A DNA stretch of 64,000 nt from Anaerolineae bacterium (GCA_035693785.1 DASSFZ010000212.1:4647-68646); one strand, 5' to 3'. Shown: positions 1 to 24,068, numbered from the stretch's first letter. Numbers and translations are program-made. The notes: generated by a model not told the origin, from the sequence alone.

Positions 1-191
1 AAGAATGTGAAGTAATCGATCTGGAACGTGGTTGAGCCCGCCGGATACGCAAAGCGCGGCAGCAGGCGCGTCATAGCCGGGCCGAAGGCCAGCAGCAGCA
101 GGACGATGTCGAGCAGGAGCACCGCGAAAAACACCCAGAACTTGCGTATCAACTTCAAGTCGCGCTGCCACACGTCGAATGCGCCGAGCAT
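1..191 (-). CDS. ABC-2 type transporter permease, N-terminal fragment (gene runs off left edge)
   Basis: Own minus-strand translation from ATG 191..189: MLGAFDVWQRDLKLIRKFWVFFAVLLLDIVLLLLAFGPAMTRLLPRFAYPAGSTTFQIDYFTF. It starts 1 nt after the TGA (195..193) of the upstream ATPase. A basic stretch is followed by a hydrophobic helix, as in ABC-2 permeases. Partial, so absent from the ORF track. Confidence 0.55.
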   Translation of the reverse strand, partial: MLGAFDVWQRDLKLIRKFWVFFAVLLLDIVLLLLAFGPAMTRLLPRFAYPAGSTTFQIDYFTF

Positions 192-192
192 A

Positions 193-1149
193 TCAGGCCT
201 CGATTCGCATACCCGTCAGGTTGATGAACGCATCTTCCAGCGTCGGCCCCTGCACCGTCACGGCGTTGGCCGTCACACCGTGGTCGTGCAGATAGTTCAA
301 CACATAGGGCATCTTGCCCACCGCATCGTCGAGATACAGCCGGGCGATACGCTGATGGTAATTGCCCACAATGACGTACTTCTCGATCTCGCCGGCGCGC
401 ACCAGGGGAATCAGCATGGCGTCGGTCAGGTTGGGCGCGTGAACTTCCAGACTGCTCTTGCCGCTCACCTGCGACCTGATCTCGTGTGGCGCACCTTCGG
501 CCACTTTGCGGCCGCGATGCAGAATCGCCAGCCGATCGCACAGGCGATCGGCCTCTTCCATATAGTGCGTGGTGAGGATCACCGTGCAGCCGCGCGCTTT
601 CATTTCGCCGACCATGTCCCACACACTACGCCGAGAGGCCGGGTCCAGGCCGGCGGTTGGCTCGTCCAGGAAGACGAACTGAGGCGAGAGCATCATCACG
701 CGAGCCAGATCGAGCTTGCGCTTCATGCCGCCGGAGAACGAATCAACCAGGTGCCGTTCCTTGCCGTCCAGGTTGGCCCAGCGGAACGCTTCTCGTAGGC
801 GCTGTGCGCGCTCGGCGCCGCGCAGGCCGTGGATCTTGGCGTAGAAATCGAGGTTGTCATACGCCGTCAACATGCAGTCCAGGCAGGCATTCTGCGCGAC
901 GACGCCGATGCGCTGGCGCACCTGGGCGGGCTGCTTGCGCACGTCGTAACCGCCCACACTGGCCGTGCCGGACGAAGGTCGCAAGATGGTTGTCAAGATG
1001 CGCACTGCCGTCGTCTTGCCCGCGCCGTTGGGACCCAGCAGTCCAAAAATCTCGCCGGCCGCCACGTCCAGATCGAGCTCGGCCAACGCCAGGACGTTGC
1101 CGGCGTAGCGCTTGGTCAACTTGTGCGTACGTATTCCGTCGCTCATCAT
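193..1149 (-). CDS. ABC transporter ATP-binding protein (ABC-2/DrrA type, no peptidase or TM domain)
   Basis: Walker A GPNGAGKTT, signature FSGGMKRKL, Walker B FVFLDEPTAGLD. ATGATGA start/stop overlap with the upstream ligase gene; the second ATG (1146) is an equally possible start. Confidence 0.93.
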   Translation of the reverse strand: MMSDGIRTHKLTKRYAGNVLALAELDLDVAAGEIFGLLGPNGAGKTTAVRILTTILRPSSGTASVGGYDVRKQPAQVRQRIGVVAQNACLDCMLTAYDNLDFYAKIHGLRGAERAQRLREAFRWANLDGKERHLVDSFSGGMKRKLDLARVMMLSPQFVFLDEPTAGLDPASRRSVWDMVGEMKARGCTVILTTHYMEEADRLCDRLAILHRGRKVAEGAPHEIRSQVSGKSSLEVHAPNLTDAMLIPLVRAGEIEKYVIVGNYHQRIARLYLDDAVGKMPYVLNYLHDHGVTANAVTVQGPTLEDAFINLTGMRIEA

Positions 1150-2648
1150 CCCTCCACCGGTTGCTCGACCGGCAAAAACCAGCTGCCCGCGCGAATGATC
1201 GGGGACGGGTCGATCAACCGCTCCACTAGGGCTAACAGCGGTTGGTACTCGTCCGGCGCGCGCCCCGACACGGTATCCAGGTACAGGCGCGACTTGAGGG
1301 ACGCGCCGTCCCGAATGGGGATGGCGCCGGGCGGCACGCGAATCGCGGGGAAGAAGAATCGCTGTTTAGCAAAAGCGTGTGTCTCGCGCACTTCCGCCTC
1401 GCTTTTGCCACAGCACGCAGCCAGGATATGTCCGGCCATGCCAGTGTCCACACGCGGCACGTCCGGCGTATCATCTTCCAGGAACGTCACGACGATGCGT
1501 GGAAAGCCGCCATTCAAAGCGTAGTAGACGGGAAAGACGCGCCTGAAACCTTTCAGTTCCTGGGCAATCCATTGCAGGTTGTAAGTGCTGCCATTGATCC
1601 CGATGTAGGGCACTTGGACTTCGTGATCGCGGTGGTGGAAGCGCATAGAGCGTCCAGAGAAGCCACAGGCGCACTCGGCGGCGGGCGAAATTTCGACCAT
1701 GTCGGCGTTCAAGTGCTTGACGATGGGGAACACCGAGTTGGCGCAGGTAATGGCCAGCTCGCCGAAGCCGGTTTTCTCCATGCGGCCATTCTCCGCCTGG
1801 ATGCGGATGTCGCGCCGGCCGATCATACGCTGAAGGTCAAGCCCCTGGTAACACTCGCACGGAAACAGCCTGGTCAGCATCTGCAGCTTGAGGCCGCCCA
1901 ACCGGCCGAGCTGGCTGCTGATGGCCAACTTGAGCATGGTCGCCGGGTCAGCATCCGACAGGTGATACACCTCGCCGATGCCGGCGTGCGAGTAGCCGAA
2001 CAGCCCGCCCTCGGTGCATCCGAACACGCTGCCGTATTGGATGCCCATAGCCTCGATCTTGTGCGCCAGTTCCTGGTTGGGCAGCATCAACACCATCTGG
2101 ATGCCTGCCGCGCGCGGCTCCAGGCCGTGTTCGATCAGGTAGTTGAACCAGATGCCCGGCGAGTTATCCACGATGACATTGGGGCGTTCGCGTTCGATCA
2201 GATCCAAAACGTACGGCGCGTCGGAGAGCCTGTCGCGCGACACACCGACCAGGACCGAGCCAAAAGCCTTGGCACGTTCTTCTTCGTCAGGATTTACACA
2301 AAAGAGAAATCGGGGGCTGCCTTTGATCTGGCTGATAAAATTGAGGAAGATGCTCTGACACAGGAAAAACCATTCGGCTCTGAGCCAGGGAAAAGTGATG
2401 GGGCGATTAGTTGTGCCAGAAGTGTGTCGATACTCGATCTGCGTGTCGGGATAGGCAACCGGCAAGTAGTAGGGTTGGCCGGTTTCTTCCTCGTAGCGGA
2501 TGATGTCGCTTTTGGTGAGAAACGGAATGTCTTGCACGCCGGCCCGCTCCACGTCCACAGCAGCATTGTCGTACAGCCAGCGGTAGAACGGTTTCTCTTG
2601 GTAAGCCTGGCGCGCCAGCGCCAGAATGAATTCGTCACCGTCGTTCAT
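1146..2648 (-). CDS. PaaK / coenzyme F390 synthetase / CapK-like adenylate-forming enzyme (copy 1)
   Basis: N-terminal KPFYRWLYDNAAVDVERAGVQDIPFLTKSDI resembles the PaaK-type motif. ANL nucleotide loop is HTSGTTNRPITFPW. Start moved from 2696 to ATG 2648 (GGAGAA 7 nt upstream). Paralog of 4481-6010. Confidence 0.8.
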   Translation of the reverse strand: MNDGDEFILALARQAYQEKPFYRWLYDNAAVDVERAGVQDIPFLTKSDIIRYEEETGQPYYLPVAYPDTQIEYRHTSGTTNRPITFPWLRAEWFFLCQSIFLNFISQIKGSPRFLFCVNPDEEERAKAFGSVLVGVSRDRLSDAPYVLDLIERERPNVIVDNSPGIWFNYLIEHGLEPRAAGIQMVLMLPNQELAHKIEAMGIQYGSVFGCTEGGLFGYSHAGIGEVYHLSDADPATMLKLAISSQLGRLGGLKLQMLTRLFPCECYQGLDLQRMIGRRDIRIQAENGRMEKTGFGELAITCANSVFPIVKHLNADMVEISPAAECACGFSGRSMRFHHRDHEVQVPYIGINGSTYNLQWIAQELKGFRRVFPVYYALNGGFPRIVVTFLEDDTPDVPRVDTGMAGHILAACCGKSEAEVRETHAFAKQRFFFPAIRVPPGAIPIRDGASLKSRLYLDTVSGRAPDEYQPLLALVERLIDPSPIIRAGSWFLPVEQPVEG

Positions 2649-2706: not shown

Positions 2707-4101
2707 TCACAGGCAGGCGGGCTGCGTCGGCGCGGACACTTCCGTCGTTTGCTGCAACTGCAGGTATACAGGCACCAGTTGGCAGTCGAACGACGAGGTC
2801 GCCCTGAGTTGTCCTTGTTCGTAGTACGCCTGCGCCGGGCAGCGGCTGCAATACTTCTGGTAAGCGGGGCACGTCCGGCATTGGTCGGGATCCGCGAACC
2901 AGCGTTCTTCGCGCATTTGGCATAGCGCGGGCGATTGTCGCCAGATGTCGGCGAAACTCTCCCGCTCCAAGTCGCCCACTTCGATCATCAGTCGTTGACA
3001 CGGCGTCACGCGCCCGTTGGGCGTGATGGCATACTTGGTCCGAGCCGCACCACAGTATAAGTTAGGGAAGGGCCGGTACCAACCTCGCGACATCAGGTTT
3101 CGAATCTGGTCGAGCGACAGTCGATCGTTCAGCGTGTCGGTCGCGCCATTGGTGCGGGCGTATACGGCAATCGACAGGATAGGCTGAGACAGTCCCCAGG
3201 TCGCCGATAATCGCGCGAAATTGTCCACATCGTCGAAATTACGGCGAGTGACCACCATCCCCGGAATGACCTTGACGCCATGCTCCCGAAGCAGTGCGAC
3301 GCCGTGGCAGCTGCGTTCAAATGCGCCGTTCCGCCCTGCCAGACGATCGTGAACGTCCGGGCTGCCGCCGTGAAAGGAGACGGCGACGCTTTCGAGAGCC
3401 AGCCGGCCAAGGCGCTCGGCCAGCTCCGGGGTGATCAGCGTGCCGTTCGTCACAACCGATGTGACAAACCCACGCTGCACGGCGTATTCGAGAATCAACA
3501 TGAAGTCGGGGTGCGCCGTCGGTTCGCCGCCGCTCAGGCGGATGCACAGCGTGCCCGCCTCGGCTATTTGATCCAGGATGTCTCGCCAGTGGCTGAAGTC
3601 CAGCGCGCGCCCGCGCTGTCCGGCGTCGTAGCAGTAATAGCACTTCAGATTGCAGGCATGGGTCAGCGTCAGAGTGGCCACCAGTGGGACGCACTTCTCA
3701 TCAGCAGCACCGTAAAAGCGGGCGACCTGCGCAGGTACGGGCAAATTGGAGCGTCGATTCTGACGTGAGAAAGCGGGCGTCGTGCAACCCTCCAGTGTCA
3801 CGAGTCCGCTCTGGTGGAGTGCATGCACAAACCGAGCCACACTGTCCGTGACGGCGGCCAAGTCGGCATCGTAGTGCCGCGCCACGGCGCGCGCCATCTC
3901 CTCGCCTGTTCGGGTGCCGTCAGCCAACTGCCAGATATATGTTCCGACTCGATCCATACGGTGTTGGATGGTCGCACCTTCACGCAGGCTGATGATGAAC
4001 GTGTCGTCGCCGACGGTTCGCGAGCGCGCGGCCTCGTGGCGACTGATCCGGCGTTTCAATTCGTTCGCTGTGGGCTGTTCTGCACGACCGTTGCTGCCCA
4101 T
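2707..4101 (-). CDS. Radical SAM/SPASM peptide maturase with N-terminal PqqD/RRE-like domain (rSAM-1)
   Basis: THACNLKCYYCY (CxxxCxxC). C-terminal SPASM cysteines are CGAARTKYAITPNGRVTPCQ ... CRTCPAYQKYCSRCP. N-terminal FIISLREGATIQHRMDRVGTYIWQLADGTRTGEEMARAVARHY is PqqD-like. Start moved to ATG 4101 (AAGGAG 7 nt upstream). Confidence 0.9.
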   Translation of the reverse strand: MGSNGRAEQPTANELKRRISRHEAARSRTVGDDTFIISLREGATIQHRMDRVGTYIWQLADGTRTGEEMARAVARHYDADLAAVTDSVARFVHALHQSGLVTLEGCTTPAFSRQNRRSNLPVPAQVARFYGAADEKCVPLVATLTLTHACNLKCYYCYDAGQRGRALDFSHWRDILDQIAEAGTLCIRLSGGEPTAHPDFMLILEYAVQRGFVTSVVTNGTLITPELAERLGRLALESVAVSFHGGSPDVHDRLAGRNGAFERSCHGVALLREHGVKVIPGMVVTRRNFDDVDNFARLSATWGLSQPILSIAVYARTNGATDTLNDRLSLDQIRNLMSRGWYRPFPNLYCGAARTKYAITPNGRVTPCQRLMIEVGDLERESFADIWRQSPALCQMREERWFADPDQCRTCPAYQKYCSRCPAQAYYEQGQLRATSSFDCQLVPVYLQLQQTTEVSAPTQPACL

Positions 4102-4307
4102 CCGTACACTCCTTCGTAATCCCGATGGAGAGTGTCGCACTGTCCGGCAGTCGCTAACGAGTGCCTGCCACTAACCGAGACCGCTCAGTCAATCGTGACG
4201 TCCGTGTTGGCCGCAAGGGCCGTGACGCATGCACAGGCAACACTCTCCTCGACAGTCAGGGGAGACAATCCAGCCCTGGCTATGCTCGCTGGCTCGTCAG
4301 TGACGGA

Positions 4308-4388
4308 CTAGCAAGCGGCGGCGCACTCCTTCAGAGCTTCCGCTTCCTCGCCAACATCGAGTGTGATCAGCTCAGGCTCGGCGTACAT
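4308..4388 (-). CDS. Putative RiPP precursor peptide A, 26 aa: MYAEPELITLDVGEEAEALKECAAAC
   Basis: Hand-translated; too short for the ORF track. ATG 4388..4386 is preceded by GGAGG (GGAGGTAAGCAC-ATG). An in-frame TAG six codons upstream fixes the start. Stop is TAG at 4310..4308. It lies upstream of rSAM-1 (about 200 nt before its start) on the same strand. Confidence 0.65.
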   Translation of the reverse strand: MYAEPELITLDVGEEAEALKECAAAC

Positions 4389-4480
4389 GTGCTTACCTCC
4401 TCTCTAGTAGGATGTGAGATCGACTCCCCGGCCGGAGGAATCGCGAAACCGCTCGATGCGTACACTCGCCGGCATTGCCG

Positions 4481-6010
4481 TCAGGCCGGCGTTGGCTGAG
4501 AAACCTCAACGGGCAAGAACCAGCTTCCCGACCGGATGATGGCGGCGCGGTCGACAAGCTGGTCGATCAACGCCAGCACAGGTCGATACTCGTCGGGCAC
4601 GTATCCGGACACCGCATCCAGGTACAGGCGAGATTTGAGCGAATGTTGGTCTCGCAGGGGTATCGTCCCGACCGGAATGCGAACGGCCGGGAAAAATGGC
4701 AAGAAGTTCCTTCTCGATGAGATGAGGCGCATCGTCTCTGAATTGATGCCGGTTGCCGCCGTCATAATGCGCTCAGCCAGGTCGAGATCCAGGCAGGCTG
4801 CCGTCGCGAGTTCGTCTTCAACGAGCGTGACGACTATCCGAACCGTCGGGTCCGGTGCGATATGAATCGGGAAGACGCGCCGAAAGCCCTTCAGCCCGAG
4901 CGCGATGCCTTCCAGGCTGACGTTCATGCCGCCGCCCAGATAAGGAATCTGGACATTATGGTCGCGGCACTCGAACCGCATCGACTGCCCCACGAAGCCG
5001 CAGTCACACTTAGCCTCAGGATGAATCTCGACCCGATCGCTGTTTAAGTACTTGATGAAGGGGAATGCCGAATTCGCGCAAGTGATGACCAACTCGCCTG
5101 CACCGGCAGTGCTCAGTTCCCCATCCACCCGGCGCACTCGAATATCGCGCCGGCCGAACATGGCCTGCAGATCCATACCCTGATAGCAGTCGCAAGGGAA
5201 CAGCCGGCTGAACACCTGTAGCCGGATACCGCCTAACAGCGTTGGAGAGTCGCTGGCGGAACGGATCGGCTCTGCATCGGACAGGTGGTACACATCGCCC
5301 AGGCCGGCGTGCGCATAGCCGAAGAACCCGGCTTCCATACAGCCAAACGCGCTGACGTACTTCAGGCCCAAGGACTCCACCTTCTGGGCCAGTTCGGCGC
5401 TGGGATATGCACAGACCATTTGGATGCCGGCCCGGCACGGATCTAGGCCGTGGTCGAGGAGATAGTTAAACCACAGGCCCGGCGAATTATCGAGAAAGAT
5501 ATTGGGCCGATGCCTGGCGATGAGGTCTAAGACGTAGGGCGCGTCGGCCATGCGATCGTGCGGCACATTCACCAGCACCGACTGGAAGGCTCGCATCTCT
5601 TCCAGTTGATTGGGATTGACGGCGTTGAGGAAACGCGGGCGACCTTTGATTTGCTCGATGAAGTTCAACAGCAAGCTGTTGTAGAGGAACGACCACTCGG
5701 ACTTCAGCCAGGGTATCACCAGAGGCTGGCAGGTTGTGCCGGAGGTACGCAGATATTCCAAGCTGGAATCTGGATAGCCCAGCGGCAGATAATAGGGCTG
5801 CCCCGTCTCTTCCTCGTAGTGGAAGAAGTCCTTCTTGGTGATGAAGGGCAATCGTCGCACGTCCGCGTGTTCTACGTCCACGCTTGCGTTATCATAAAAC
5901 CAGCGGTAAAAGGGCTTTTCCTGATAAGCCTCGCGAGCGAGTGAGAGGATAAACTCGTCTCGCTGCCTCAGCCGCCCAACCGCGTTTTTCTCCTCGTGTC
6001 GCTTATCCAT
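4481..6010 (-). CDS. PaaK / coenzyme F390 synthetase / CapK-like adenylate-forming enzyme (copy 2)
   Basis: KPFYRWFYDNASVDVEHADVRRLPFITKKDF and RTSGTTCQPLVIPW. Clearly paralogous to 1146-2648 along its whole length. Start moved to ATG 6010 (GGAAGG upstream). Confidence 0.8.
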   Translation of the reverse strand: MDKRHEEKNAVGRLRQRDEFILSLAREAYQEKPFYRWFYDNASVDVEHADVRRLPFITKKDFFHYEEETGQPYYLPLGYPDSSLEYLRTSGTTCQPLVIPWLKSEWSFLYNSLLLNFIEQIKGRPRFLNAVNPNQLEEMRAFQSVLVNVPHDRMADAPYVLDLIARHRPNIFLDNSPGLWFNYLLDHGLDPCRAGIQMVCAYPSAELAQKVESLGLKYVSAFGCMEAGFFGYAHAGLGDVYHLSDAEPIRSASDSPTLLGGIRLQVFSRLFPCDCYQGMDLQAMFGRRDIRVRRVDGELSTAGAGELVITCANSAFPFIKYLNSDRVEIHPEAKCDCGFVGQSMRFECRDHNVQIPYLGGGMNVSLEGIALGLKGFRRVFPIHIAPDPTVRIVVTLVEDELATAACLDLDLAERIMTAATGINSETMRLISSRRNFLPFFPAVRIPVGTIPLRDQHSLKSRLYLDAVSGYVPDEYRPVLALIDQLVDRAAIIRSGSWFLPVEVSQPTPA

Positions 6011-6072
6011 TCCGAACCTTCCATCCCCGCCACGGCCAACCGATAGTCGCACGCGCGAATGTCGCCGGGCCG

Positions 6073-6630
6073 TCACGCCAAGGCGGTGTCAGCCATGACG
6101 AGCAGGTCTTCTCCGACGTCGATAGCGTCGTGTCGCTGGTCGGCGAACTGCGCCAATCGCCCCGTTAGGAGCGCCAGGCCGGACACGATCGATTCGCGTT
6201 CGAGGGCTGATAAGCCTGACAGCAGCCCCTGGAAAAACACGTTTTGCAACGTCCGAATTTGCGTGCTGCGCGCTTCGCCGCTCTCTGACAGCTTCAGACA
6301 AACGACACGCCGATCCCGTTCGTCGCACATCCGCTCTGTCAGGTTGGCTTTGACAAGCTTATCCGCGACCCGCGTCACCGTGCTGGCCGCCAACTTGGTA
6401 TAGTCGCTGATTTCGGTCATCGTCATCGGGCCGTTGACTTGCAGACCCATTAAGATGTAGCTTTGCAAAATGGTGATGTCCAGGGCGCCTAGCATCTCGC
6501 GGCTTAATACATAAAACAGGCGTATCAACTGCGGCAGATCGCGTTGCAGCCTGTTTGCCTCCGATAGATTCACGCTGGCTGGGTCGCAACACAACCGCTC
6601 GACGTACTCTTCCATCTGACGCCTCTTCAC
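6073..6630 (-). CDS. MarR family transcriptional regulator
   Basis: Winged-helix core LQSYILMGLQVNGPMTMTEISDYTKLAASTVTRVADKLVKANLTERMCDERDRRVVCLKLSESG is typical of MarR. An alternative start exists at MEEYV (6615). Confidence 0.85.
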   Translation of the reverse strand: MKRRQMEEYVERLCCDPASVNLSEANRLQRDLPQLIRLFYVLSREMLGALDITILQSYILMGLQVNGPMTMTEISDYTKLAASTVTRVADKLVKANLTERMCDERDRRVVCLKLSESGEARSTQIRTLQNVFFQGLLSGLSALERESIVSGLALLTGRLAQFADQRHDAIDVGEDLLVMADTALA

Positions 6631-6661
6631 ACAGTTCGCGCGGCTCCGTGTCGCAGCGCAA

Positions 6662-8077
6662 TTAGGCCAGAGCGGCTACCATCTGATCACGCTGATCGAT
6701 GTAGGCAATCGCATGCGCCAATTGGCAGGCTTCTTGACAACGGCCGTCAAACGTCGTGCTCTCCAGATACGACAGGCCCACGCAATCGACGCAGTAAGAT
6801 CGCACACGGCATTCGCGACAGCCCGCCCGGTCTTTCGTCTCCAAATAAGAGCGGAAGCGAGCGATCCACTCCTGGCGCTCGGGGGAACGCAAAACCGTCT
6901 CGAAAGAATGGTGAGCCAGGTTGCCCAATTCGATCGTCGATAACATCTCGCATGGGTGCAACGAGCCATCCGGCCCTATGCGAAATCGGCTGACCCCCGC
7001 CGTGCATCGGCTGCGCCGCAGCGTGATGCCCAGTTGTGGCGTCATCGCCCTGAATTGTTCGCGAGTCGCCCGGTATTGCGTTGGAGCGGCGTTGCGCTGA
7101 ATCGTGGGATATACGAGCGGGCTGACCTGAAACCGAATGCCCAGTGAGTCCAGCCGGCGCTTGATCTCCAACAACTGATCGGCATTGTCGCTCATCAGTG
7201 TGCTGGTGACCGTGACCGGAACGCCGTGGGTATGGAGCGCCACAATCCCCTTCCACGTCCTCTTGAAGGAACGTGCGTTCCGCACAAAACGGTTGTGGTA
7301 GGCTTCTAAGCCGTATATGGGCACCCGCACCTCGACCAGCGAAACAGAGGCGAGCAATTCGACTAGTTCTTCGTCAAGCCGCGTACCGTTAGTCAGCAGT
7401 TCCACGGCGAAGTGCAGTTCATGAGCACGCTGCAGTATCTTGGTGAAGGCACGGTGCAGCGTCGGCTCGCCGCCAGTCAGAATCAACTCCAACACGCCGG
7501 CTTGCGCCATCTCGTCCAGGAGTTCTAGCTGGCGCGAAGTGGAGAGCGCCGACGTGCCCGGCACGCCTACGCCGAACCCCAAGTAACAATGCTGGCAGTG
7601 ATGATTGCAGTGATGCGTCAACTCAAAGAAGACCTTGAGCGGCAGCACCTGGGCGCTGGCCTTTTCAAACATAGTATCCAACACATCGGCTTCGGACACT
7701 TCCGGCTCGCCTCCGTTCGACACGGGTGATCTGAGCGAGAGGCTCGTCGCGCCATTCGGGGATTCTTCGGTGAACAAGCCCGCCGCCACAGCCGACACCA
7801 GAAACTCCTCCAGACCGGAGTCGAATTCATCGGGCGATACATCGAAGCGGGCGAGTATCTCGTCTCTGAATGCGTCGAAGGCCGCGCGCCGTTCGACGGA
7901 CGAGAACACTTCGACGCCAAGCCCGCCGACAATGGCGAATCGGTTCTCAACCTTTGCGCCTGTTCGCCAGCAGAACACTTCATCACCGACGAAGCGATAG
8001 GCCAGGTTGTCCGCGATCTTCAGGTGAGACCATGCCTGCCCGACTTTCCCGTCAGCACCAGAATCGTGATCGTTCAC
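6662..8077 (-). CDS. Radical SAM/SPASM peptide maturase with N-terminal PqqD/RRE-like domain (rSAM-2)
   Basis: THHCNHHCQHCY (CxxxCxxC). SPASM cysteines are CTAGVSRFRIGPDGSLHPCE ... CRECRVRSYCVDC. GTG start at 8077 with AGGAGA upstream. Confidence 0.9.
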   Translation of the reverse strand: MNDHDSGADGKVGQAWSHLKIADNLAYRFVGDEVFCWRTGAKVENRFAIVGGLGVEVFSSVERRAAFDAFRDEILARFDVSPDEFDSGLEEFLVSAVAAGLFTEESPNGATSLSLRSPVSNGGEPEVSEADVLDTMFEKASAQVLPLKVFFELTHHCNHHCQHCYLGFGVGVPGTSALSTSRQLELLDEMAQAGVLELILTGGEPTLHRAFTKILQRAHELHFAVELLTNGTRLDEELVELLASVSLVEVRVPIYGLEAYHNRFVRNARSFKRTWKGIVALHTHGVPVTVTSTLMSDNADQLLEIKRRLDSLGIRFQVSPLVYPTIQRNAAPTQYRATREQFRAMTPQLGITLRRSRCTAGVSRFRIGPDGSLHPCEMLSTIELGNLAHHSFETVLRSPERQEWIARFRSYLETKDRAGCRECRVRSYCVDCVGLSYLESTTFDGRCQEACQLAHAIAYIDQRDQMVAALA

Positions 8078-8195
8078 ACCATATTCTCCTGATCGAGTAT
8101 CAACACGTCCGGCTCATAGCCCCTGAAACCGTGGCGGGGCGCCTCTGGGCACGCTGCGCCAAATCCGTCCTTTATGGTCTCACCGTTGAGAACCA

Positions 8196-8225
8196 CGAGC
8201 GCCCGGTTTCGGCGCTCGGTTTTTG
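8196..8225. terminator. GC-rich hairpin with flanking A5/T5 tracts between precursor B and rSAM-2
   Basis: CGAGCGCC-cggtttc-GGCGCTCG (8 bp stem) is followed by gTTTTTg on the plus strand. On the coding (minus) strand the stem is preceded by AAAAA and followed only by a weak U-containing tail (GUGGUUCUC). Confidence 0.35.
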
Positions 8226-8261
8226 CCCCCCCGCCTTACGGTGTATCGAAGAGCGACTCGA

Positions 8262-8330: not shown

Positions 8331-8555
8331 GCTTATACCTCCTTGGAAGTTCAGAATTCGGAACATGGTGCCATCCACATCTCGGCAGATACTCACGACC
8401 GATTCGCGAGATGCCAATCAGCACACAAGCTGACTGTACACGAGACCGTCAAGGGCGTGGTACACCAACGGGCCCAGAGGCAACAAGTTGATACCAACTC
8501 TGTTTTAACCAATGTCAGTTGATGCCCTCATGAGTGCGCGCCACAGGCAGTGGCC

Positions 8556-10917: not shown

Positions 10918-10975
10918 GATCGACTCCTACGTTGGCCGCTTGCGCGTCGATCCGACGCCTGGGCGGCGCGGCACC

Positions 10976-16626: not shown

Positions 16627-17417
16627 CACGCTTCCTTCACCGGCTCCGGCAGGCGAATGCCCAGGATGTTGAAGCCGCCGTCGACATACACCACTTCGCC
16701 GGTCACGGCGCCGGACAGATCGCTGCACAGCCACACGGCCGTCTTGCCCACGTCCTCGATGGTGACGCGCCGCCGCAGCGGGGCGATGTCCTCGAAAGTG
16801 CGAAACAGCGTCTTGAAACCGGTCACGCCGGCCGAAGCCAGCGTGCGAATCGGCCCGGGGCTGATGGCGTTGACGCGTATATGGCGCGGCCCCAAGTCGC
16901 AGGCCAGATAGCGCACGCTCGCTTCGAGCGCGGCCTTGGCCACACCCATCACGTTGTAGTGCGGCATCACTTGCCGGCTGCCGTGGAAGGTGAGGGTGAG
17001 GACGCTGCCGCCCGGGTTCATCAACGGCGCGGCGGCCCGCACCAGAGCCGTGAGCGAATAGGCGCTGATGTCGAGCGCCAAGTGAAAACCCTCGCGCGAG
17101 GTGTCGAGGTACGGCCGGTTGAGATCGTCGCGATTGGCGAAGGCGACGCTATGCACCAGGAAGTCCAGCGTCCCGAACGCCTGACGCGCTTTCTCAAACA
17201 GCGTCGCGATGTCCGCGTCGCGCGTCACGTCGCACGGCTCGACGAACTCGGCCCGCAGGCTGCGCGCCAGCGGCCGCACGCGTCGCTCCAGCGCGGGCAC
17301 GGCGTAACTGAAGCCGAGTGTCGCGCCCTCCGCGTGCAGAGCCTGGGCGATGCCCCAGGCAATGCTGTGATCGTTTGCCACGCCGAAGATCAGGCCTTGC
17401 TTGCCGCTGAGTAACAC
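16626..17417 (-). CDS. fabI: Enoyl-ACP reductase
   Basis: [36 protein letters not shown] and [18 protein letters not shown] are typical FabI motifs. GTG start with GAGGAGG upstream. Confidence 0.88.
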
Positions 17418-17563
17418 AGCGCCTCCTCGCTCTCACAGTGCATCCGACATGTCATTCTGAGGCACGAAGCGCCGAAGAATCTCTGTTTTCGCGGCCCGAC
17501 ATGAGACACTTCGCTCGCTGCGCCCGCCCAGAGTGACGGCTGCACGGAGTCTTAAGACACACT

Positions 17564-18805
17564 CTAAATCGCCGCGCGTTGCAGGATCAGGCACGCGTTT
17601 TGCCCGCCGAAGCCTGCCGAGTTGGAGAGCGCCACATCTACCCGGGCCTGACGCGCTGTGTTCGGTACGTAATCCAGGTCGCACTCCGGATCCGGATACT
17701 CGTAGTTGATCGTGGGCGGCAGCACGCCGTCGCAGATCGCTTTCACGCAGATCATCGCCTCCACCGCGCCGGCAGCGGCAATCAGGTGGCCTGTCATCGA
17801 CTTGGTCGAGCTGACCGGCACTCGCTGGGCATGCTCGCCGAACACCGACTTGATGGCGCGCGTCTCGATCGCGTCGTTGAGCGACGTCGAGGTGCCGTGC
17901 GCGTTAATGTAGTCCACGTCCTGCGGCGAGAGCCGGGCCTTGCGCAGCGCGAGATGCATAGCCCGCGCCAGGCCCTCGCCGTCCTCCGGAGGCGCGGTGA
18001 TGTGGTAAGCGTCGGCCGTCGCCGCATAGCCCACCAGCTCGGCGTATATGCGTGCGCCGCGCGCCTGCGCGTGCTCAAGCTCTTCCAGGATCACCACGCC
18101 CGCTCCCTCGGCCAGCACGAAGCCGTCGCGCCAGGCATCGAACGGGCGGCTGGCGCGCGTCGGCTCGGCGTTGCGCCGTGAGAGCGCGCGCATGGCGCTG
18201 AATCCGGCAACGGTCAGCGGCCCGACCGAGGCTTCCGTCCCGCCCGCGATCATCACGTCGGCGTCGTCGCGCCGGATGATCTCCGCTGCCTCGCCGATGG
18301 CGTGTGCGCCGGTGCTGCACGCCGACATGACGCAGAAATTCGGTCCCTTCACGCCCAGCGCCATGGCGATCTGGCTGGAAGCCATGCTGCTGATCCACAT
18401 CGGCACCAGCAACGGGTGGATGCGCTTGGGACCGTGTTCGAGCATCACGCGGAATTGCTCGAAGAGCGTGGTCGTGCCGCCTTTGCCGCTGCCGATAATC
18501 ACGCCGGTTCGCTCAGCGAGGCCGTTGTCGAAGCACAGACCCGTCTCCTGCACGGCTTGAAACGCGGCGGCCATCGCGTATTGCACAAACGGATCGAGTC
18601 GCCGCGCCTGCTTCGCGCCCAGAATGGACGCCGGGTCGAAGTCCTTGATTTCGGCCCCGATGTGGACGTCCCACTCCGAAGTGTCGAACTTCGTGATGAG
18701 GCCGACACCGGATTGCCCCGCGCACAGGGCTGACCACAGCGACGGAACGTCGGGCCCCAACGACGTCAACGCTCCCATACCGGTGATGACCACACGTCGA
18801 GTCAT
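17564..18805 (-). CDS. Beta-ketoacyl-ACP synthase II-like (full triad)
   Basis: MSACSTGAHAIGEA, NAHGTSTSLND, MTGHLIAAAG. Confidence 0.92.
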   Translation of the reverse strand: MTRRVVITGMGALTSLGPDVPSLWSALCAGQSGVGLITKFDTSEWDVHIGAEIKDFDPASILGAKQARRLDPFVQYAMAAAFQAVQETGLCFDNGLAERTGVIIGSGKGGTTTLFEQFRVMLEHGPKRIHPLLVPMWISSMASSQIAMALGVKGPNFCVMSACSTGAHAIGEAAEIIRRDDADVMIAGGTEASVGPLTVAGFSAMRALSRRNAEPTRASRPFDAWRDGFVLAEGAGVVILEELEHAQARGARIYAELVGYAATADAYHITAPPEDGEGLARAMHLALRKARLSPQDVDYINAHGTSTSLNDAIETRAIKSVFGEHAQRVPVSSTKSMTGHLIAAAGAVEAMICVKAICDGVLPPTINYEYPDPECDLDYVPNTARQARVDVALSNSAGFGGQNACLILQRAAI

Positions 18806-18834
18806 GTCATCTCACCTTCTTTCTCAAACGCAAC

Positions 18835-20097
18835 TCAAGCCGGCGCGGCGCCGTGCCCGTTGCGCCACTTGCCGAAGATTAGGCTCGCGTTGTGCCCACC
18901 GAATCCGGCCGAGTTGGACAGCGCTACGTCGACGCGGCGCACCAGGGGCTGGTTGGGCACGTAGTTCAAGTCGCAAGCCGGGTCCCGATACTCGTAGTTG
19001 ATCGTCGGCGGAATTATGCCGTCGTTGATGGCGCGCAGGCAGAAGATGGCCTCCACCGCGCCGGATGCGCCCAGTAGATGACCGGTCATCGACTTGGTCG
19101 AGCTGACCGGCAGGTCGTAAGCGTACTCACCGAAGACGCCCTTGAGCGCCAGCGTCTCGACGCGATCGTTGAGCGGCGTCGACGTGCCATGCGCGTTGAC
19201 GTAATGGACGTCTTCGGGCGCCAGGCCGGCCTTGTTCAGCGCAATGCGGATGGCGCGCACCAAACCGTCGCCACCCTCCACCGGAGCGGTGATGTGATGC
19301 GCGTCGGCCGTCGCGCCGTAACCCAGCAGCTCGCCGTAGATGCGCGCGCCGCGTCGCTGCGCGTGCTCGGCCGACTCGAGCACGAGCACGCCGGACCCTT
19401 CGCCGATGACGAACCCGTCGCGTTGGGCGTCGAACGGCCGGCTGGCATGCACCGGGTCATCGTTGCGACGCGAGAGCGCGCGCATGGCCGTGAAGCCGGC
19501 CACGCAAATGGGGTGGAGCGAGGCATCGCTGCCGCCTGCAATCATCACATCGGCGTCGCCGCGCCGGATGACCTCGGCGGCCTCGCCGATCGAATGTGCG
19601 CTGGTGCAGCACGCCGAGACAATGGCGAAGTTGGGTCCCTTGGCGCCCACCCGCATGGCAACGTGAGCCGACGCCATATCGCAAATCATCATCGGGATCA
19701 GGAAGGGACTGACCCGTTCCGGCCCGTAACGATCGAGCGTCCGCAGCTCGTCGCACAGGGTGATGGTGCCGCCTTTGCCCGAACCGATCAGCACGCCGAC
19801 CCGCTCGGCGTCGACCTCGTCCATCTTCAGCCCGGCGTCGGCAACGGCGCGGTCGGCTGCGTACAGCGCGTATTGCACAAATCGATCGAGTCGCCGGGCC
19901 TCCTTGCGGCTGCAACAGACGGCTGCATCGAAGTCGCGTACCTCGGCGGCGATCTGGCTGTCGAAAGGCGTGGGATCGAACGATTGAATGCGCCGCACGC
20001 CGGAGCGACCTTCGAGCAGCGCCGTCCACACTTCGTCCACTTCATGCCCCAGCGAGATCAAAATACCCATGCCGGTGACAACCATGCGTCGGCTCAT
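18835..20097 (-). CDS. Beta-ketoacyl-ACP synthase II-like (full triad)
   Basis: VSACCTSAHSIGEA, NAHGTSTPLND, MTGHLLGASG. Start moved to ATG 20097 (GGAGAT upstream). Confidence 0.92.
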   Translation of the reverse strand: MSRRMVVTGMGILISLGHEVDEVWTALLEGRSGVRRIQSFDPTPFDSQIAAEVRDFDAAVCCSRKEARRLDRFVQYALYAADRAVADAGLKMDEVDAERVGVLIGSGKGGTITLCDELRTLDRYGPERVSPFLIPMMICDMASAHVAMRVGAKGPNFAIVSACCTSAHSIGEAAEVIRRGDADVMIAGGSDASLHPICVAGFTAMRALSRRNDDPVHASRPFDAQRDGFVIGEGSGVLVLESAEHAQRRGARIYGELLGYGATADAHHITAPVEGGDGLVRAIRIALNKAGLAPEDVHYVNAHGTSTPLNDRVETLALKGVFGEYAYDLPVSSTKSMTGHLLGASGAVEAIFCLRAINDGIIPPTINYEYRDPACDLNYVPNQPLVRRVDVALSNSAGFGGHNASLIFGKWRNGHGAAPA

Positions 20098-20126
20098 ACG
20101 CCCGATCTCCAATCAGGTCGGCCAGG

Positions 20127-20558
20127 TCAACGTGCGGATTCGTCGCGGGGCATGCTCAAGACGACTTCACCTTCGGCCACCAGGTCGTCGCCGGCCTTCA
20201 CCTGGCCGCGCACGCAGACAAACCCACGTCGCCCAGCAGCGACTTCGACTTCGAGTGTCAAGGCGTCTCCCGGCCCAGCCGGGCGAACGATGTGAAAGTT
20301 CTCGATGCTCGCCAGGTAGCCGGCGCGCCCGGCGGCATCCGTTCCCAGCGACGCAGTCAGCCGACCCGCCTGGGCAATCGCTTCGATCAGCCACACACCG
20401 GACCAGTCAGGCGCGCTCGTCGCCAGCGGCTCGCCGATGCTAATCACATTGCGGGCCACGCCGCGCCGGCCCGGCTCAATCGCGAGCACGCCGTCGACGC
20501 GCAGCATCGGCGGTCGGTGCGGCAGGACGGCCAGCACGTCGGCGCTATACAGGTTCAA
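20127..20558 (-). CDS. FabZ/FabA-like hotdog-fold protein lacking the catalytic His motif
   Basis: VLPHRPPMLRVDGV and WLIEAIAQAG are retained. The GHFP segment is replaced by ATSAPDWSG. Confidence 0.75.
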   Translation of the reverse strand: MNLYSADVLAVLPHRPPMLRVDGVLAIEPGRRGVARNVISIGEPLATSAPDWSGVWLIEAIAQAGRLTASLGTDAAGRAGYLASIENFHIVRPAGPGDALTLEVEVAAGRRGFVCVRGQVKAGDDLVAEGEVVLSMPRDESAR

Positions 20559-22302
20559 CGGTTGCTCCGCATGTGCACCACGACCGCAGATAAGTCTGGA
20601 GCGCCTCCACGTAGCGCTGAAAGTCGCTCAAGGCCTCTGGCGATCCGGCCGTGTGCGCGCCATTGAGCGTTGGGCCAGGATCCGCGCCGAGACCGATGAG
20701 CAGCCGGCGCAGCGCCGCGTTGTCCAGCCGGAGGGCCACGTCGGCCCCATCCGCCTGCGCCGAAAACGCCTGGACCTCGCCCTGCACAATGGCCAGGCTT
20801 CCAGAACCGATGTCTGTGTCCATCCGAACCGTCGTCGAGTACGCAGGGAACTGCTGCGCCAGGTGTGCATTGACCAGCGGCTTGAGCACGGCGATGAGCT
20901 CCGACCATTCAGCCAAGGTGGCAGGGACGCAGTAGTGGTGCAGCAGCGTCGGCCAGGCGCTCTTGAGCAGGCCTTCGCGCACCACGTCGCGCGCAGTCTT
21001 GATACCCGCCGGATTGAACACCTGGATGAGTTTAGCCAGATGAGGGTTCTCGGCGCGCAGACGGGTCCACATGCGAGGCAGCGCGAACTCCTGGCGCAAG
21101 TAGTACGCCTTGTACAATTCGCGGAGCGTCGCGTAGGCCGATTCGGGCGACACGTCTTCACCACACACCCGGTGATGCGGGTTGTAATCTTCCCAATCGT
21201 GCGCGAGCAGCAGCCCTTTGCGCCGGCACTCGTCGTATAACGGCGTGCCTGGGTACGGTGTGGCGAACCCGATCTGTGCGAATTCGAGATCGAGCTCGCG
21301 CGCGAATTCGATCATCGACCAGCGTTGGGCGCGATCCGGCTGAAGCCCGTCGATCAGCAGCGTCGCCCACAGTGCAACATCGCACTCGTGCAACGCCTGG
21401 ACGGCCTGGCGTAGGTTGTCGCGGCGAGATGCGTCGGCCACGTCGCACGGCTGCACCGTCAGCAACTGTACGACGAAGCCCGCTTCGCGCATCTTGGCGA
21501 CGATCTCTGGCTGTTGTCGGATCGCCAGGACATCGGCATGACACCACATCCAGGGGCGCACTTGGCGCTGGATGAGCTCCTCGCAGATATGGCGCACACG
21601 GCCGATGTCGGCCATGAAGTGATCGTCGAGCACCATGATCAGCTCGGCACCCCGGCTCACCAGGTCGGCGATCTCGCCGACGACGCTAGCGGCCGAGCGC
21701 GCCCGCCAGCCGCTCGTCGGGCTGCCCCGGCTGCTCTCGATAGCGTCCAGCCGCTTGCCGAAGGCCGTGTACCGGGCGCGGTCGCAGATTCGGGCCGGCA
21801 GGTGCGCGTCGAGATCGGGCAGCGGGGACGCAGCAGGCGTACTGACAACCGCTCCGTCGTCCCGATAGCACAATCCGGCCACCTGGCGGGGATCCGCGCC
21901 CGATACCAGCTGGCGGAATGCGATTTCGCCCTCACCCTGGACGACGAAGTCCACGCATCCGGACGCGATGATCTCCGGCGCGACGGCGGTTGTCGCAGCG
22001 CCACCCATGGCGATCGGCGCCGACAGCCCGGCCTGCTTGAGCTGGCGTGATAGGGCCACCGCGGTTGCCACCCAGGGGAGCGCCAGCGCGGTCAGGCCCA
22101 CCCAGTCCGGCTGAAAGGCTTCCGCCTCTCCAACCACGTCGCTCGCATCCAAGCCATCCGCTTCAGCATCCAGAATTCTGACCTCGGCCTCCGGTGGCGG
22201 GCTGGCAGCCAGGTACTCCAGCGCCAGCGGTGGAAGGCGGGCGGCATCCGGATTCCACAGACTATGTGCCGGTCGCGGCGGATTGATCAGAAGGACTCTC
22301 AT
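20545..22302 (-). CDS. B12-binding-domain radical-SAM-like protein without the CxxxCxxC cluster motif
   Basis: N-terminal MRVLLINPPRPAHSLWNPDAARLPPLALEYLAAS is B12-domain-like. Where class B rSAMs have SRGCPxxCxFC, this protein reads ESSRGSPTSGWRARSAASVVGEI. Confidence 0.75.
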   Translation of the reverse strand: MRVLLINPPRPAHSLWNPDAARLPPLALEYLAASPPPEAEVRILDAEADGLDASDVVGEAEAFQPDWVGLTALALPWVATAVALSRQLKQAGLSAPIAMGGAATTAVAPEIIASGCVDFVVQGEGEIAFRQLVSGADPRQVAGLCYRDDGAVVSTPAASPLPDLDAHLPARICDRARYTAFGKRLDAIESSRGSPTSGWRARSAASVVGEIADLVSRGAELIMVLDDHFMADIGRVRHICEELIQRQVRPWMWCHADVLAIRQQPEIVAKMREAGFVVQLLTVQPCDVADASRRDNLRQAVQALHECDVALWATLLIDGLQPDRAQRWSMIEFARELDLEFAQIGFATPYPGTPLYDECRRKGLLLAHDWEDYNPHHRVCGEDVSPESAYATLRELYKAYYLRQEFALPRMWTRLRAENPHLAKLIQVFNPAGIKTARDVVREGLLKSAWPTLLHHYCVPATLAEWSELIAVLKPLVNAHLAQQFPAYSTTVRMDTDIGSGSLAIVQGEVQAFSAQADGADVALRLDNAALRRLLIGLGADPGPTLNGAHTAGSPEALSDFQRYVEALQTYLRSWCTCGATVEPV

Positions 22303-22349
22303 CGCTGGGCCTACCCGTCCGAAGTATCAGGGCGTCGCACGGCGAGTCA

Positions 22350-23846
22350 TTAGGCGCGGGCCAGCGCATTCCGGCGCTGCATGTCCTTTTCACGATGAAA
22401 GATGTTGTAGTTGCAGAACGGCATCATGCGCCCGTCGGTCGTGAGGACGTGATAGCAGCATTTCATCGCCCGGCTCTGGTCGTAGGTGCTGGGATCCATG
22501 AAGCCGTGGACGCCGATCATCTTGCCCATGCCGACCAGCGTCTTGTCTTTGGCGTAAGCCGCCGCGCAGCAGCTGAGCGCCCGTCCCACTTTCTCGGACT
22601 CCATCACCGCCGAGGCTGACCATAGCGTCTCCAGGTTCGATTGCAGATCGCGCATCCACTGCTCGCTGTTGAACAGCAGCCGGTTTTGCAGGTAGTTCAG
22701 CATCTTGTCGGCCTGGGTGATGCGGGCCAGCGAGACCCAATCGTTCGGCCCGGCCTTCAGGAAGTAGCCCACCGCCGAGCAGGAGGGGTGCGAGCACGGG
22801 ATGGATACAAAATCCTCCTTGGTCATCAAGCCGTCCATCTGAGCCTCGAGCAGGTTCAGGATCGTCGTCAGTGTGATGTGACGCTGCATGTCGTGCGGCA
22901 GATGGTTGGAGAGCGCGTCGCCACAATAGATCAGCGGCTGCAGCGTCAGCGAGTGGATGAAGTCGTTCTCCAACACCAGCCGAATCGTCTCGCCGACGGC
23001 ATCCTCGTTGAGGTCTTGCGCGATGGTGGTGATCAGCAGCGTCTTGACGTTGTACTTAGCCAGATGGTCGAAGGCCAAGCGCTTCATCTTGCTGAGATCG
23101 GCGCCGCGCAGCCGCCTGTAAGTCTCCGCTTTGAACCCATCGAACTGCAACTGGATGTAGGCCCCGGTCTCGGCGATGCGGCGGACGAACTCTTCGTCGC
23201 GGGCGAGGCGCAGGCCGTGCGTGTTGACGGCCACCTTGGTGGCGACGGGATGGTTGATCGCAATGTCCAGCAGCTCGAAGAATTGCGGATGCACGGTCGG
23301 CTCGCCGCCGGTCAGGCACACGATCTCCGCGCGGCCCTCGGCCTGCGCCAGACGATCGAGCATGAAGGTCATTTGCTCCGGCGACAGATACCAGGCATGC
23401 TGATTCCGGGCGAAGCAGATCGGGCAATGCAGATCGCAGTGATCGGTAATCTCGATCAGAGGATAGCAGGTGTGCTGCTGGTGATCGTCGCACAGGCCGC
23501 AGTCCTCGGGACACTGCGTTTTGCGCTGTGTGGCGTGCCACAGCGGAATGGTGCCAGGCTTGGTCCGGCTGAGCGCGTGCAGCCACCAGTCTGCGTCGGC
23601 AGCCATGAGCGCCTCGAAGTGACCGTGCTCCGGGCAAAACTTGCGCATGAACACCTGGCCGTCGCGGAAGAGGATCTGCGCGTTGATCAGCGCCAGGCAC
23701 TCCGGACACGTGCTACGCGTGATGCCGAAGAAGATGTGGTCCTGATCCTGTCTGGTATTCGCTCGCTCGATTGCCGCTTGAACCGGGTCATGGACTTGAG
23801 CGCCTAGCGGGACAACCGGCGCGTCGACGGGGACGGTCGTACTCAT
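22350..23846 (-). CDS. Radical SAM enzyme with N-terminal zinc-ribbon/rubredoxin-like motif (COG1964, MJ0619/Tes-like architecture)
   Basis: TRSTCPECLALINAQILFRDGQVFMRKFCPEHGHF, followed by ITDHCDLHCPICFA (CxxxCxxC). Start moved to ATG 23846 (AGGAGG upstream). Confidence 0.8.
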   Translation of the reverse strand: MSTTVPVDAPVVPLGAQVHDPVQAAIERANTRQDQDHIFFGITRSTCPECLALINAQILFRDGQVFMRKFCPEHGHFEALMAADADWWLHALSRTKPGTIPLWHATQRKTQCPEDCGLCDDHQQHTCYPLIEITDHCDLHCPICFARNQHAWYLSPEQMTFMLDRLAQAEGRAEIVCLTGGEPTVHPQFFELLDIAINHPVATKVAVNTHGLRLARDEEFVRRIAETGAYIQLQFDGFKAETYRRLRGADLSKMKRLAFDHLAKYNVKTLLITTIAQDLNEDAVGETIRLVLENDFIHSLTLQPLIYCGDALSNHLPHDMQRHITLTTILNLLEAQMDGLMTKEDFVSIPCSHPSCSAVGYFLKAGPNDWVSLARITQADKMLNYLQNRLLFNSEQWMRDLQSNLETLWSASAVMESEKVGRALSCCAAAYAKDKTLVGMGKMIGVHGFMDPSTYDQSRAMKCCYHVLTTDGRMMPFCNYNIFHREKDMQRRNALARA

Positions 23847-24068
23847 GGTTCCTCCTGTTTGGCACAGCGAGTTCCTGGCAACTGCAGGTGAACTGCGCGA
23901 TTCCGCCGGAACGGGAATAGCTATCGAACTCGGATCGAAACGGCGGGTCACACCCTTGCCGGCGAGTAGAGTTCAGCCATCTTCGTGTTATTAGCGGAAT
24001 GGCAACGACGACTCGGAGCTGTCTTTGAAGAGAGTATGCGATGCGGCGCAGGCAAGCAACAGCGGAAA

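Follow-up and report, generated by a model that had tools for sequence, protein, structure and literature searches.

The window analysed here, a 64,000-nt stretch of DNA from an Anaerolineae bacterium (GCA_035693785.1 DASSFZ010000212.1:4647-68646), carries at its beginning a block of 23 genes that are all encoded on the minus strand between positions 1 and 23846. This number and direction, put forward in a first-pass annotation of the same DNA, were borne out by the listing of open reading frames (ORFs), by translation and by the analysis of start codons, Shine-Dalgarno sites and the GC content of third codon positions (GC3). Domain searches likewise agree with the two-part anatomy proposed at that stage, a lipid half and a half for a peptide that is ribosomally synthesised and then modified after translation (RiPP). 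As argued below, the block appears to consist of two separable biosynthetic modules that lie head to tail, module 1 (10126-23846) for the lipid and module 2 (1 to ~10075) for the peptide. All features are listed in Table 1.

The junctions within the block include eight overlaps of 1-26 nt and short gaps of 1-62 nt, and there are six larger spacers, at 17418-17563 (146 nt), 9885-10125 (241 nt), 8331-8555 (225 nt), 8078-8261 (184 nt), 4389-4480 (92 nt) and 4102-4307 (206 nt), whose earlier coordinates were exactly reproduced by measuring the junctions. Of the two boundaries originally ascribed to the block, the divergent HlyD gene is confirmed by domain matches; the opposite end is formed by the exporter gene, which is cut by the window edge at base 1, and the lower boundary is accordingly not observed. 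The halves differ in base composition, with a GC content of 65.2% in module 1 versus 60.1% in module 2, and with GC3 values of 0.75-0.86 versus mostly 0.69-0.75 (up to 0.81 in the ABC ATPase gene). Horizontal transfer was considered on the basis of this difference and rejected, as the difference is too weak and the remaining window (61.6%) falls between both halves. Relatives of parts of the block were found in L087 and L086 (both from sample ERR10900016), L088 (ERZ27256988), L003 (GCA_037933065.1) and L089 (GCA_036704645.1), on contigs of 1.4-4.3 kb, so that the comparison covers contigs and not whole genomes.

Table 1. Features of the block and its divergent neighbour, in order of position (- and +, strands;., not stranded)
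Feature	Position	Strand	Basis or detail
Presumed transporter permease, hydrophobic N-terminal part, cut by the window edge	1-191	-	Translation
ABC transporter ATPase (DrrA-like)	193-1149	-	Pfam
PaaK-fold adenylate-forming enzyme 2 (PaaK2, P0001)	1146-2648	-	AlphaFold model, pLDDT 83.4; Foldseek
SPASM3, PqqD-radical SAM-SPASM maturase	2707-4101	-	Homologues in L086 and L087, 47-48% identical
Precursor peptide B, MYAEPELITLDVGEEAEALKECAAAC	4308-4388	-	GGAGG Shine-Dalgarno site upstream
PaaK-fold adenylate-forming enzyme 1 (P0002)	4481-6010	-	Paralogue of PaaK2, 59% identity
MarR-family regulator	6073-6615	-	Pfam; L089 homologue after SPASM1, 51% identical
SPASM2, radical SAM/SPASM maturase	6662-8077	-	L088 homologue 61% identical
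GC-rich hairpin, 44 nt past the precursor A stop	8196-8218	-	Sequence
Precursor peptide A, MFKLVVGKTRRTSGAVACGSGC	8262-8330	-	AGGAGG Shine-Dalgarno site upstream
SPASM1, PqqD(RRE)-radical SAM-SPASM peptide maturase	8556-9884	-	Pfam, NCBIfam
Conserved non-coding promoter/operator-like element, ~100 nt, upstream of SPASM1	9975-10075	-	Five-genome alignment
Short-chain dehydrogenase (SDR) at the module junction	10126-10917	-	Pfam
B12-binding radical SAM enzyme, TIGR04072 'lipid biosynthesis/ladderane' family	10976-12406	-	Best family by far, full length
Ketosynthase that pairs with the CLF-like protein, active-site Cys present	12403-13674	-	L003 homologue 68% identical
CLF-like ketosynthase partner	13667-14968	-	AAETAG where the partner ketosynthase has AACASS
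Acyl carrier protein, 147 aa	14956-15399	-	NCBIfam 68 bits, cut-off 70
Canonical FabZ dehydratase	15374-15886	-	Pfam and NCBIfam
FabG-type ketoreductase	15883-16626	-	Pfam; B12-binding radical SAM gene adjoins homologues in 55 loci
FabI-type enoyl-ACP reductase	16626-17417	-	Pfam adh_short_C2, 303 bits
FabF, second copy	17564-18805	-	TIGR03150 614 bits, above cut-off
FabF (beta-ketoacyl-ACP synthase II)	18835-20097	-	TIGR03150 608 bits, above cut-off
FabZ-like hotdog protein	20127-20558	-	Catalytic His lost: TSAP instead of GHFP
B12-binding-domain protein, 585 aa, pseudo-radical-SAM	20545-22302	-	CxxxCxxC replaced by SRGSPTSGW
Radical SAM enzyme with N-terminal HMPTM zinc ribbon, homologue of Tes/GDGT-MAS and TrsS	22350-23846	-	CxxxCxxC present
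Spacer separating HlyD from the divergent first lipid gene	23847-24241	.	Three CT[AC]GAC hexamers
Divergent HlyD/RND-type membrane-fusion adaptor	24242-25420	+	Pfam HlyD_D23 and HlyD_3; TIGR01730 128 bits, above cut-off

Module 2 encodes three putative peptide maturases, SPASM1 to SPASM3, all of which present the CxxxCxxC motif of radical S-adenosylmethionine (rSAM) enzymes and SPASM domains. SPASM1 and SPASM3 additionally carry PF05402 (PqqD), the domain that serves as RiPP recognition element (RRE), and the N-terminal domain of SPASM2 is RRE-like in look and under the Pfam threshold. The protein SPASM1 is identical to NCBI HET7088748.1, which is named there 'PqqD family peptide modification chaperone'. 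None of the named rSAM/SPASM subclasses in NCBIfam (sactipeptide, ranthipeptide, mycofactocin, PQQ, SCM, GeoRSP and ACGX) accommodates these enzymes, as all scores lie far below the cut-offs, the best of them being ScmE with 143 vs 400 bits, and a metagenome scan with a SPASM1 alignment returned relatives of at most 31% identity, none of them with a PaaK-like gene. The MarR-family protein is the sole regulator that Pfam detects in the block.

The two small ORFs among the 23 genes are the candidate precursors A and B. Both have homologues that sit between maturase genes in related genomes: that of A (MFKLIVGKTRRTSQQVCGSGC) lies in L088 between the SPASM1 and SPASM2 homologues, and that of B (MYTKPEVITVEFAAEDDSPKATGCGSSGC) in L087 between the SPASM1 and SPASM3 homologues. 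Across these pairs the leader-like N-terminal parts are conserved and the cores are variable, with two Cys kept, the last of which is the C-terminal residue. ORFs that combine a Shine-Dalgarno site and a Met start with a C-x3/4-C-stop ending are restricted to A and B in both strands of the 64 kb, and none arose in 30 shuffles. No NCBIfam precursor model matches either peptide. Precursor A contains no Asp or Glu, so that its sole carboxylate is that of the C-terminal Cys. The hairpin that follows precursor A is a possible attenuator or mRNA stabiliser. In its general design the module resembles RiPP systems whose rSAM/SPASM enzymes have a PqqD/RRE domain fused to them (sactipeptides, ranthipeptides such as PapB/SCIFF, and mycofactocin MftC), with which it shares the PqqD-rSAM-SPASM architecture, short Cys-containing precursors beside the enzymes, and an exporter and a regulator within the cluster. 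It differs from them in the terminal C-x3/4-C-COOH common to its precursors and in the partnership of its enzymes with PaaK-fold adenylating enzymes.

The two PaaK-like enzymes owe their assignment to structure prediction. Pfam assigns neither of these ~500-aa paralogues to any family, and this includes AMP-binding and AMP-binding_C_2 at their gathering scores; in the alignment of 60 family members, to which the window paralogues belong, AMP-binding matches 21. An AlphaFold model built on this 60-sequence alignment, with a predicted local distance difference test (pLDDT) score of about 83, has PaaK-family proteins as its top 33 Foldseek matches in the PDB (PaaK1/2, BT_0428, HCL, ClxA, AjiA1 and NatL2; E 1e-17 to 1e-12, template-modelling (TM) scores 0.45-0.63). 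The 'PaaK-like' label given at first is thus upheld by the predicted fold. The family profile also matches PaaK structures weakly, in both regions, and the residues T76-T80 (TSGTT P-loop), D316 (hinge), R340 (GR motif) and K452 (C-terminal Lys) do not vary among the three closest members. The window proteins have a Cys-containing insertion of ~40 aa at residues ~245-285 (…LFPCECYQGLDLQ…), the region modelled with low confidence, and ~25 aa of C-terminal tail, neither of which more distant members possess. The closest known counterparts are NatL2, AjiA1 and ClxA, members of the PaaK family that form esters or amides and not CoA thioesters: the fold is the same, whereas identity is ~15%, the window subfamily has its own insertion and C-terminal extension, and it lacks the Pfam AMP-binding match.

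This family is rare. A word-indexed search of 5.8 billion proteins retrieved three members, two of which are the window's own pair, and a set of 1.84 billion cluster representatives contained 18 at E<=1e-30. A metagenome scan with the PaaK alignment found no relative and a tblastn search of plasmids with the PaaK-like protein returned nothing, nor did the literature yield a report of PaaK/phenylacetate-CoA ligase or of any other ANL enzyme in RiPP maturation. In L086, a homologue of PaaK2 (59% identical) comes directly after SPASM3. In L091-L093 (JGI 3300032397 etc.; e.g. L091 8001-14223), a distant PaaK-like gene is found with an ABC-2 exporter, a 33-aa Cys-rich ORF (MGKKSVVFIAKPISEWNVDEATEAYCCLCHAEE) that ends in …AYCCLCHAEE and two rSAM genes, one of them of the rSAM/SPASM type, and with no fatty acid synthase (FAS) genes. 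Judged by its gene content, this looks like a second, unrelated-looking RiPP-type locus; canonical PaaK, DinB and NMT1/ABC genes lie near it. Elsewhere, in L001 (Logan SRR29307520, 192-2370), a distant PaaK-like gene (P0003) is directly followed by an Amidohydro_2 gene. Benzoxazole ligases are likewise paired with an amidohydrolase, and the L001 arrangement resembles that of NatL2/NatAM.

Module 1 combines the components of a type II FAS with several unusual proteins. The first gene encodes an rSAM protein matched by PF23545 (65 bits) and PF04055 and clearly homologous to the archaeal tetraether synthase Tes/GDGT-MAS (PDB 7tol, E 2e-56), with the same HMPTM zinc ribbon and rSAM core. It differs from Tes in its fatty-acid, not isoprenoid, context and in remaining below the equivalog cut-offs of both Tes (NF045702, 260 vs 450 bits) and TrsS (NF045646, 293 vs 490 bits). 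Solved homologues of tetraether synthase couple unactivated lipid carbons. The next protein, a relative of B12-binding rSAM enzymes, has been labelled 'B12', a description that had to be corrected in that its rSAM motif CxxxCxxC is absent, all three cluster cysteines being gone (…ESSRGSPTSGWRARS…); this pseudo-rSAM protein could be the B12-carrying partner of the active enzyme. The adjacent FabZ call also required correction, since the catalytic His is absent. The protein retains Glu and shares 42% identity with the canonical FabZ of the module, and a heterodimeric dehydratase composed of the two paralogues, by analogy with HadAB or ApeI/ApeP, is conceivable. In the acyl carrier protein (ACP), the helix that carries the Ser is followed by an insertion, and the C-terminus is extended by ~55 aa that match no family; the gene overlaps the next one by 13 nt. 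In the protein that resembles a chain-length factor (CLF), the partner of the ketosynthase (KS), the active-site Cys appears to be absent, as judged by eye.

The KS gene is followed by that of a B12-binding rSAM enzyme (B12-rSAM) with B12-binding and Radical_SAM domains and an intact CxxxCxxC, which scores 344.9 bits against the TIGR04072 cut-off of 360 and has 975 homologues at E<=1e-30. Beyond it, at the junction of the modules, the SDR is intact solely in the window: in L088 an internal deletion has left an in-frame remnant of 70 aa (294-506), with the N-terminal 30 aa joined to 20 aa from the C-terminus, and L003 and L089 lack the gene. Its reduction and loss indicate that it is dispensable for both modules. 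Neither a thioesterase nor an acyltransferase domain was found in the block by Pfam and NCBIfam searches, as had been claimed for the lipid half.

The relatives of module 1 are the 'ladderane-type' clusters, i.e. those of anammox bacteria (amxACP/amxFabZ/FabF/B12-rSAM) and those that antiSMASH calls 'ladderane'. In the window as in these clusters, a B12-rSAM, with TIGR04072 as its best family in the window, is flanked by KS/FabF, ACP, FabZ and FabG; the window has the KS pair, ACP, FabZ and FabG in one orientation, and the same neighbours recur in most of the 80 GTDB loci that were compared. These loci contain B12-rSAM homologues of 36-45% identity, no relative above 45% being present in GTDB representatives, and their usual arrangement is FabG-(FabZ)-KS-KS-B12rSAM, or FabF genes followed by rSAM/SPASM, B12rSAM, FabG and FabZ; an ACP gene beside ladderane-type genes was seen in one locus (L004). 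A dedicated thioesterase or acyltransferase is lacking on either side of the comparison. As described in the literature, the anammox cluster comprises neither of the two and has a phytoene-dehydrogenase-like gene (PMC10139942). Their absence from module 1 is no indication that its pathway is incomplete. The differences are that the window B12-rSAM lies just under the TIGR04072 cut-off (345 vs 360 bits), that none of the 13 proteins of its lipid half has a phytoene-dehydrogenase-like domain, and that the window adds the Tes/GDGT-MAS homologue, the Cys-less pseudo-rSAM, the His-less FabZ and the extended ACP. No Tes-like homologue was detected in the 80 GTDB loci. Ladderane-type clusters have been reported from many non-anammox phyla that are not known to make ladderanes, and their products are unknown (PMC9902471). 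In several of the compared loci (L016, L018, L023, L029, L049 etc., ~8.9-10.0 kb), which belong to Brocadia, Jettenia, Nitrospira and NC10, an rSAM/SPASM gene of ~360 aa without PqqD lies immediately upstream of the TIGR04072 gene, and some Desulfobacterota loci have an rSAM/SPASM of ~460 aa near it. Given this recurrence, rSAM/SPASM enzymes seem to be regular parts of ladderane-type clusters.

Between the modules, the spacer upstream of SPASM1 contains a conserved element made up of a palindrome CTAGAC-N4-GTCTAG (10057-10072), a promoter-like pair TTGTGC-17 nt-TACTAT (10034-10006) and a second palindrome TTGCTA-N-TAGCAA (9980-9992). It is present in L088 (~480-600), L003 (~3050-3160), L089 (~100-215) and L087 (~1880-1990), and is kept whatever lies upstream. 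An internal promoter had been thought likely in this spacer, and the conserved promoter-like sequence is consistent with it. A sigma-70 consensus scan of 4000-10300 gave no promoter, so the promoter call is one of conservation alone. The changes in the palindromes are not compensatory, which speaks for protein-binding DNA sites around a promoter and not for RNA structure; the latter was rejected on these grounds, and Rfam, searched with window 1-25000, gave no match. The element probably holds operator sites for the MarR of the cluster or for another regulator. In the divergent region upstream of module 1, a copy of CTAGAC-N4-GTCTAG with two mismatches (24082-24097) lies within a cluster of half-sites (24069-24130). 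At least three CT[AC]GAC hexamers are reached by just 2.2% of 395-nt windows, and these half-sites give a weak hint of a shared operator or regulator, or are due to chance. The palindrome TTGCTA-N-TAGCAA, in a motif search, proved unique to the SPASM1 upstream region.

The co-localisation of the two halves is real. The co-occurrence check suggested by the first-pass annotation had a mixed outcome, within the limits set by short contigs: four related taxa have the halves side by side, in L087 and L085 they lie apart, and none of the 80 distant loci has the RiPP genes. The gene order LacI-SPASM1-precursor B-SPASM3 is that of L087 (58% identity), which shares the element before SPASM1 and shows no lipid gene upstream, and L086, from the same sample, continues with SPASM3-PaaK. 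L085 shows the opposite half, a KS-B12rSAM pair (58-59% identity) followed by a permease. Neither a PaaK-like gene nor a close homologue of module 2 occurs in the 80 GTDB loci related to the lipid cluster. Taken together, these data favour, with a probability of roughly 0.55, a block of two separable modules placed head to tail. Module 1 would be a specialised type II lipid cluster, similar to FAS or polyketide synthase (PKS) systems, of the widespread, uncharacterised ladderane-type kind; module 2 would be a new and very rare RiPP cluster of rSAM/SPASM and PaaK-fold enzymes; the PaaK-fold enzymes would belong to the peptide pathway instead of bridging to the lipid pathway; and the neighbourhood of the modules would have been inherited within one Anaerolineae clade. 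That the halves could be independent was given as a caveat in the first-pass annotation, and it is now the better bet, not proven.

Several observations weigh against this separation. The C-terminal end of a B12-rSAM homologue lies directly upstream of the SPASM1 homologue in L003, L088 and L089, which with the window makes four taxa (65-70% protein identity), and this adjacency outlasts both the loss of the SDR and rearrangements of module 2 (SPASM1-MarR in L089, SPASM1-A-SPASM2 in L088), a persistence greater than unrelated neighbours usually show. Co-transcription by read-through is possible, given that nothing resembling a terminator was detected from the SDR to SPASM1. The promoter region of module 1 harbours the half-site cluster along with the two-mismatch version of the module-2 palindrome, and, as the relatives' contigs are short, the L087 organism could have lipid genes elsewhere. 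For both modules, moreover, the chemistry is a prediction.

Lipidated RiPPs, namely lipolanthines, goadvionins, selidamides and lipoavitides, likewise have their genes co-located with genes of the FAS/PKS type. Every known lipidated RiPP joins peptide and lipid by a GNAT acyltransferase (bioRxiv 10.1101/2023.10.25.564083), whereas no GNAT or other acyltransferase domain was found by Pfam in the block. The first-pass annotation had proposed that the FAS genes make an acyl group that the PaaK-like enzymes attach to the peptide. This mechanism is unsupported and meets some contrary evidence: PaaK-like genes accompany rSAM/SPASM and peptide genes without visible lipid genes (L087/L086 and L091-L093), they are found in 0 of the 80 GTDB relatives of the lipid cluster, and the peptide half has a conserved promoter/operator region of its own. 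Free fatty acid, which an adenylating enzyme would also require, is released by nothing in the block, and this counts further against acylation by PaaK. In a broader form, both modules would belong to a single hybrid pathway that yields one peptide-lipid conjugate, with a PaaK-fold enzyme in place of a GNAT making the link; this has well under even odds. Either a fatty acid would be adenylated and placed on a peptide amine or, with reverse polarity and a better fit to the gene content, adenylation of the peptide's C-terminal Cys carboxylate would precede loading onto the extended ACP and elongation by KS/CLF. Such a pathway would make sense of co-directional genes with no terminator-like site at the junction, of an adjacency kept in four taxa, of the conserved C-terminal Cys in both precursors with one PaaK paralogue for each, of the unusual extended ACP and of the possible shared operator half-sites upstream of module 1. 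It has to contend with the same PaaK-like, rSAM and peptide genes without adjacent lipid genes, with the 80 lipid-cluster relatives devoid of PaaK-like genes, with the promoter-like element proper to module 2, with the lack both of a thioesterase to supply free fatty acid and of the GNAT seen in known lipidated RiPPs (bioRxiv 10.1101/2023.10.25.564083), and with the difference in base composition. The fully specified version, in which PaaK-fold adenylation of the C-terminal Cys, transfer to the extended ACP and elongation by KS/CLF and FAS, or else acyl ligation to the peptide, produce a GNAT-independent hybrid that B12-rSAM and Tes-like chemistry cross-links further, is unlikely.

Two products serving one purpose, such as a membrane-active exported peptide and protective modified lipids, or answering to the same MarR-sensed signal, would account for synteny across four taxa, for the resemblance of the 24069-24130 half-sites and degenerate palindrome to the module-2 operator, and for MarR being the sole regulator in the block. 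This is quite unlikely in view of the weakness of the motif, whose count ~2% of windows equal and of which CTCGAC is a common codon pair in this GC-rich DNA, and of the confinement of the second palindrome to the SPASM1 upstream region. A block without any RiPP, in which rSAM/SPASM and PaaK-like enzymes tailor an ACP-bound lipid, like the rSAM/SPASM products encoded beside B12-rSAM in clusters of Brocadia, Nitrospirota and NC10, and in which the small ORFs occur by chance, is very improbable. Although rSAM/SPASM genes neighbour TIGR04072 genes in ~20 of the loci, those neighbours are without PqqD domains and only 22-28% identical, whereas PqqD/RRE domains are found in the window enzymes; both small ORFs come with strong Shine-Dalgarno sites, are conserved in sequence and position elsewhere and have no counterpart in shuffles; and the L087 module stands without lipid genes. 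Lipid tailoring by the SPASM enzymes was rejected on the PqqD/RRE domains, the conserved small ORFs and the L087 context.

Under the preferred reading of two separable modules, the working of the block can be outlined as follows. In module 1, the two FabF proteins, FabG, FabZ, FabI and the KS/CLF pair would build an ACP-bound chain, to be altered by the radical chemistry of the TIGR04072-like B12-rSAM and of the Tes homologue. The product would most likely enter membrane lipids via housekeeping acyltransferases, which would explain why the module has no thioesterase or acyltransferase of its own. Module 2 would be expressed from its own promoter and operators, probably under its MarR. The rSAM/SPASM enzymes would use their PqqD/RRE domains to bind the leaders of precursors A and B and may modify the conserved C-terminal C-x3-C region, most likely by a cross-link of the thioether type. 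The two PaaK-fold enzymes may adenylate a peptide carboxylate, which would permit cyclisation or ligation; if they act on peptides, the C-terminal carboxylate would be the only site in precursor A. The ABC-2 transporter would export the peptide product.

Further along the window, positions 26821-35775 on the minus strand contain an ABC uptake system of the branched-chain-amino-acid type, with two permeases, two ATPases and a binding protein with a twin-arginine translocation (TAT) signal, beyond which split phosphoenolpyruvate (PEP)-utilising/PPDK_N genes flank an Amidohydro_2 gene. The region 26821-35775 may be a locus of the phenol or aromatic carboxylation type.

As for the significance of the block, the novelty of the lipid half is that of a member, in that it adds a tetraether-synthase homologue to a known, uncharacterised ladderane-type kind of cluster. 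It bears on the products of ladderane-type clusters outside anammox bacteria, as well as on how bacteria make membrane-spanning or otherwise C-C coupled fatty-acid lipids. Were the two halves coupled after all, they would represent the first GNAT-independent route to a ribosomal lipopeptide. If the separation into two modules is true, the peptide half would define a new RiPP class in which rSAM/SPASM and PaaK-fold adenylating enzymes act on very short precursors ending in C-x3-C, a clean target for new enzymology and possibly the source of a new bioactive peptide from Anaerolineae.

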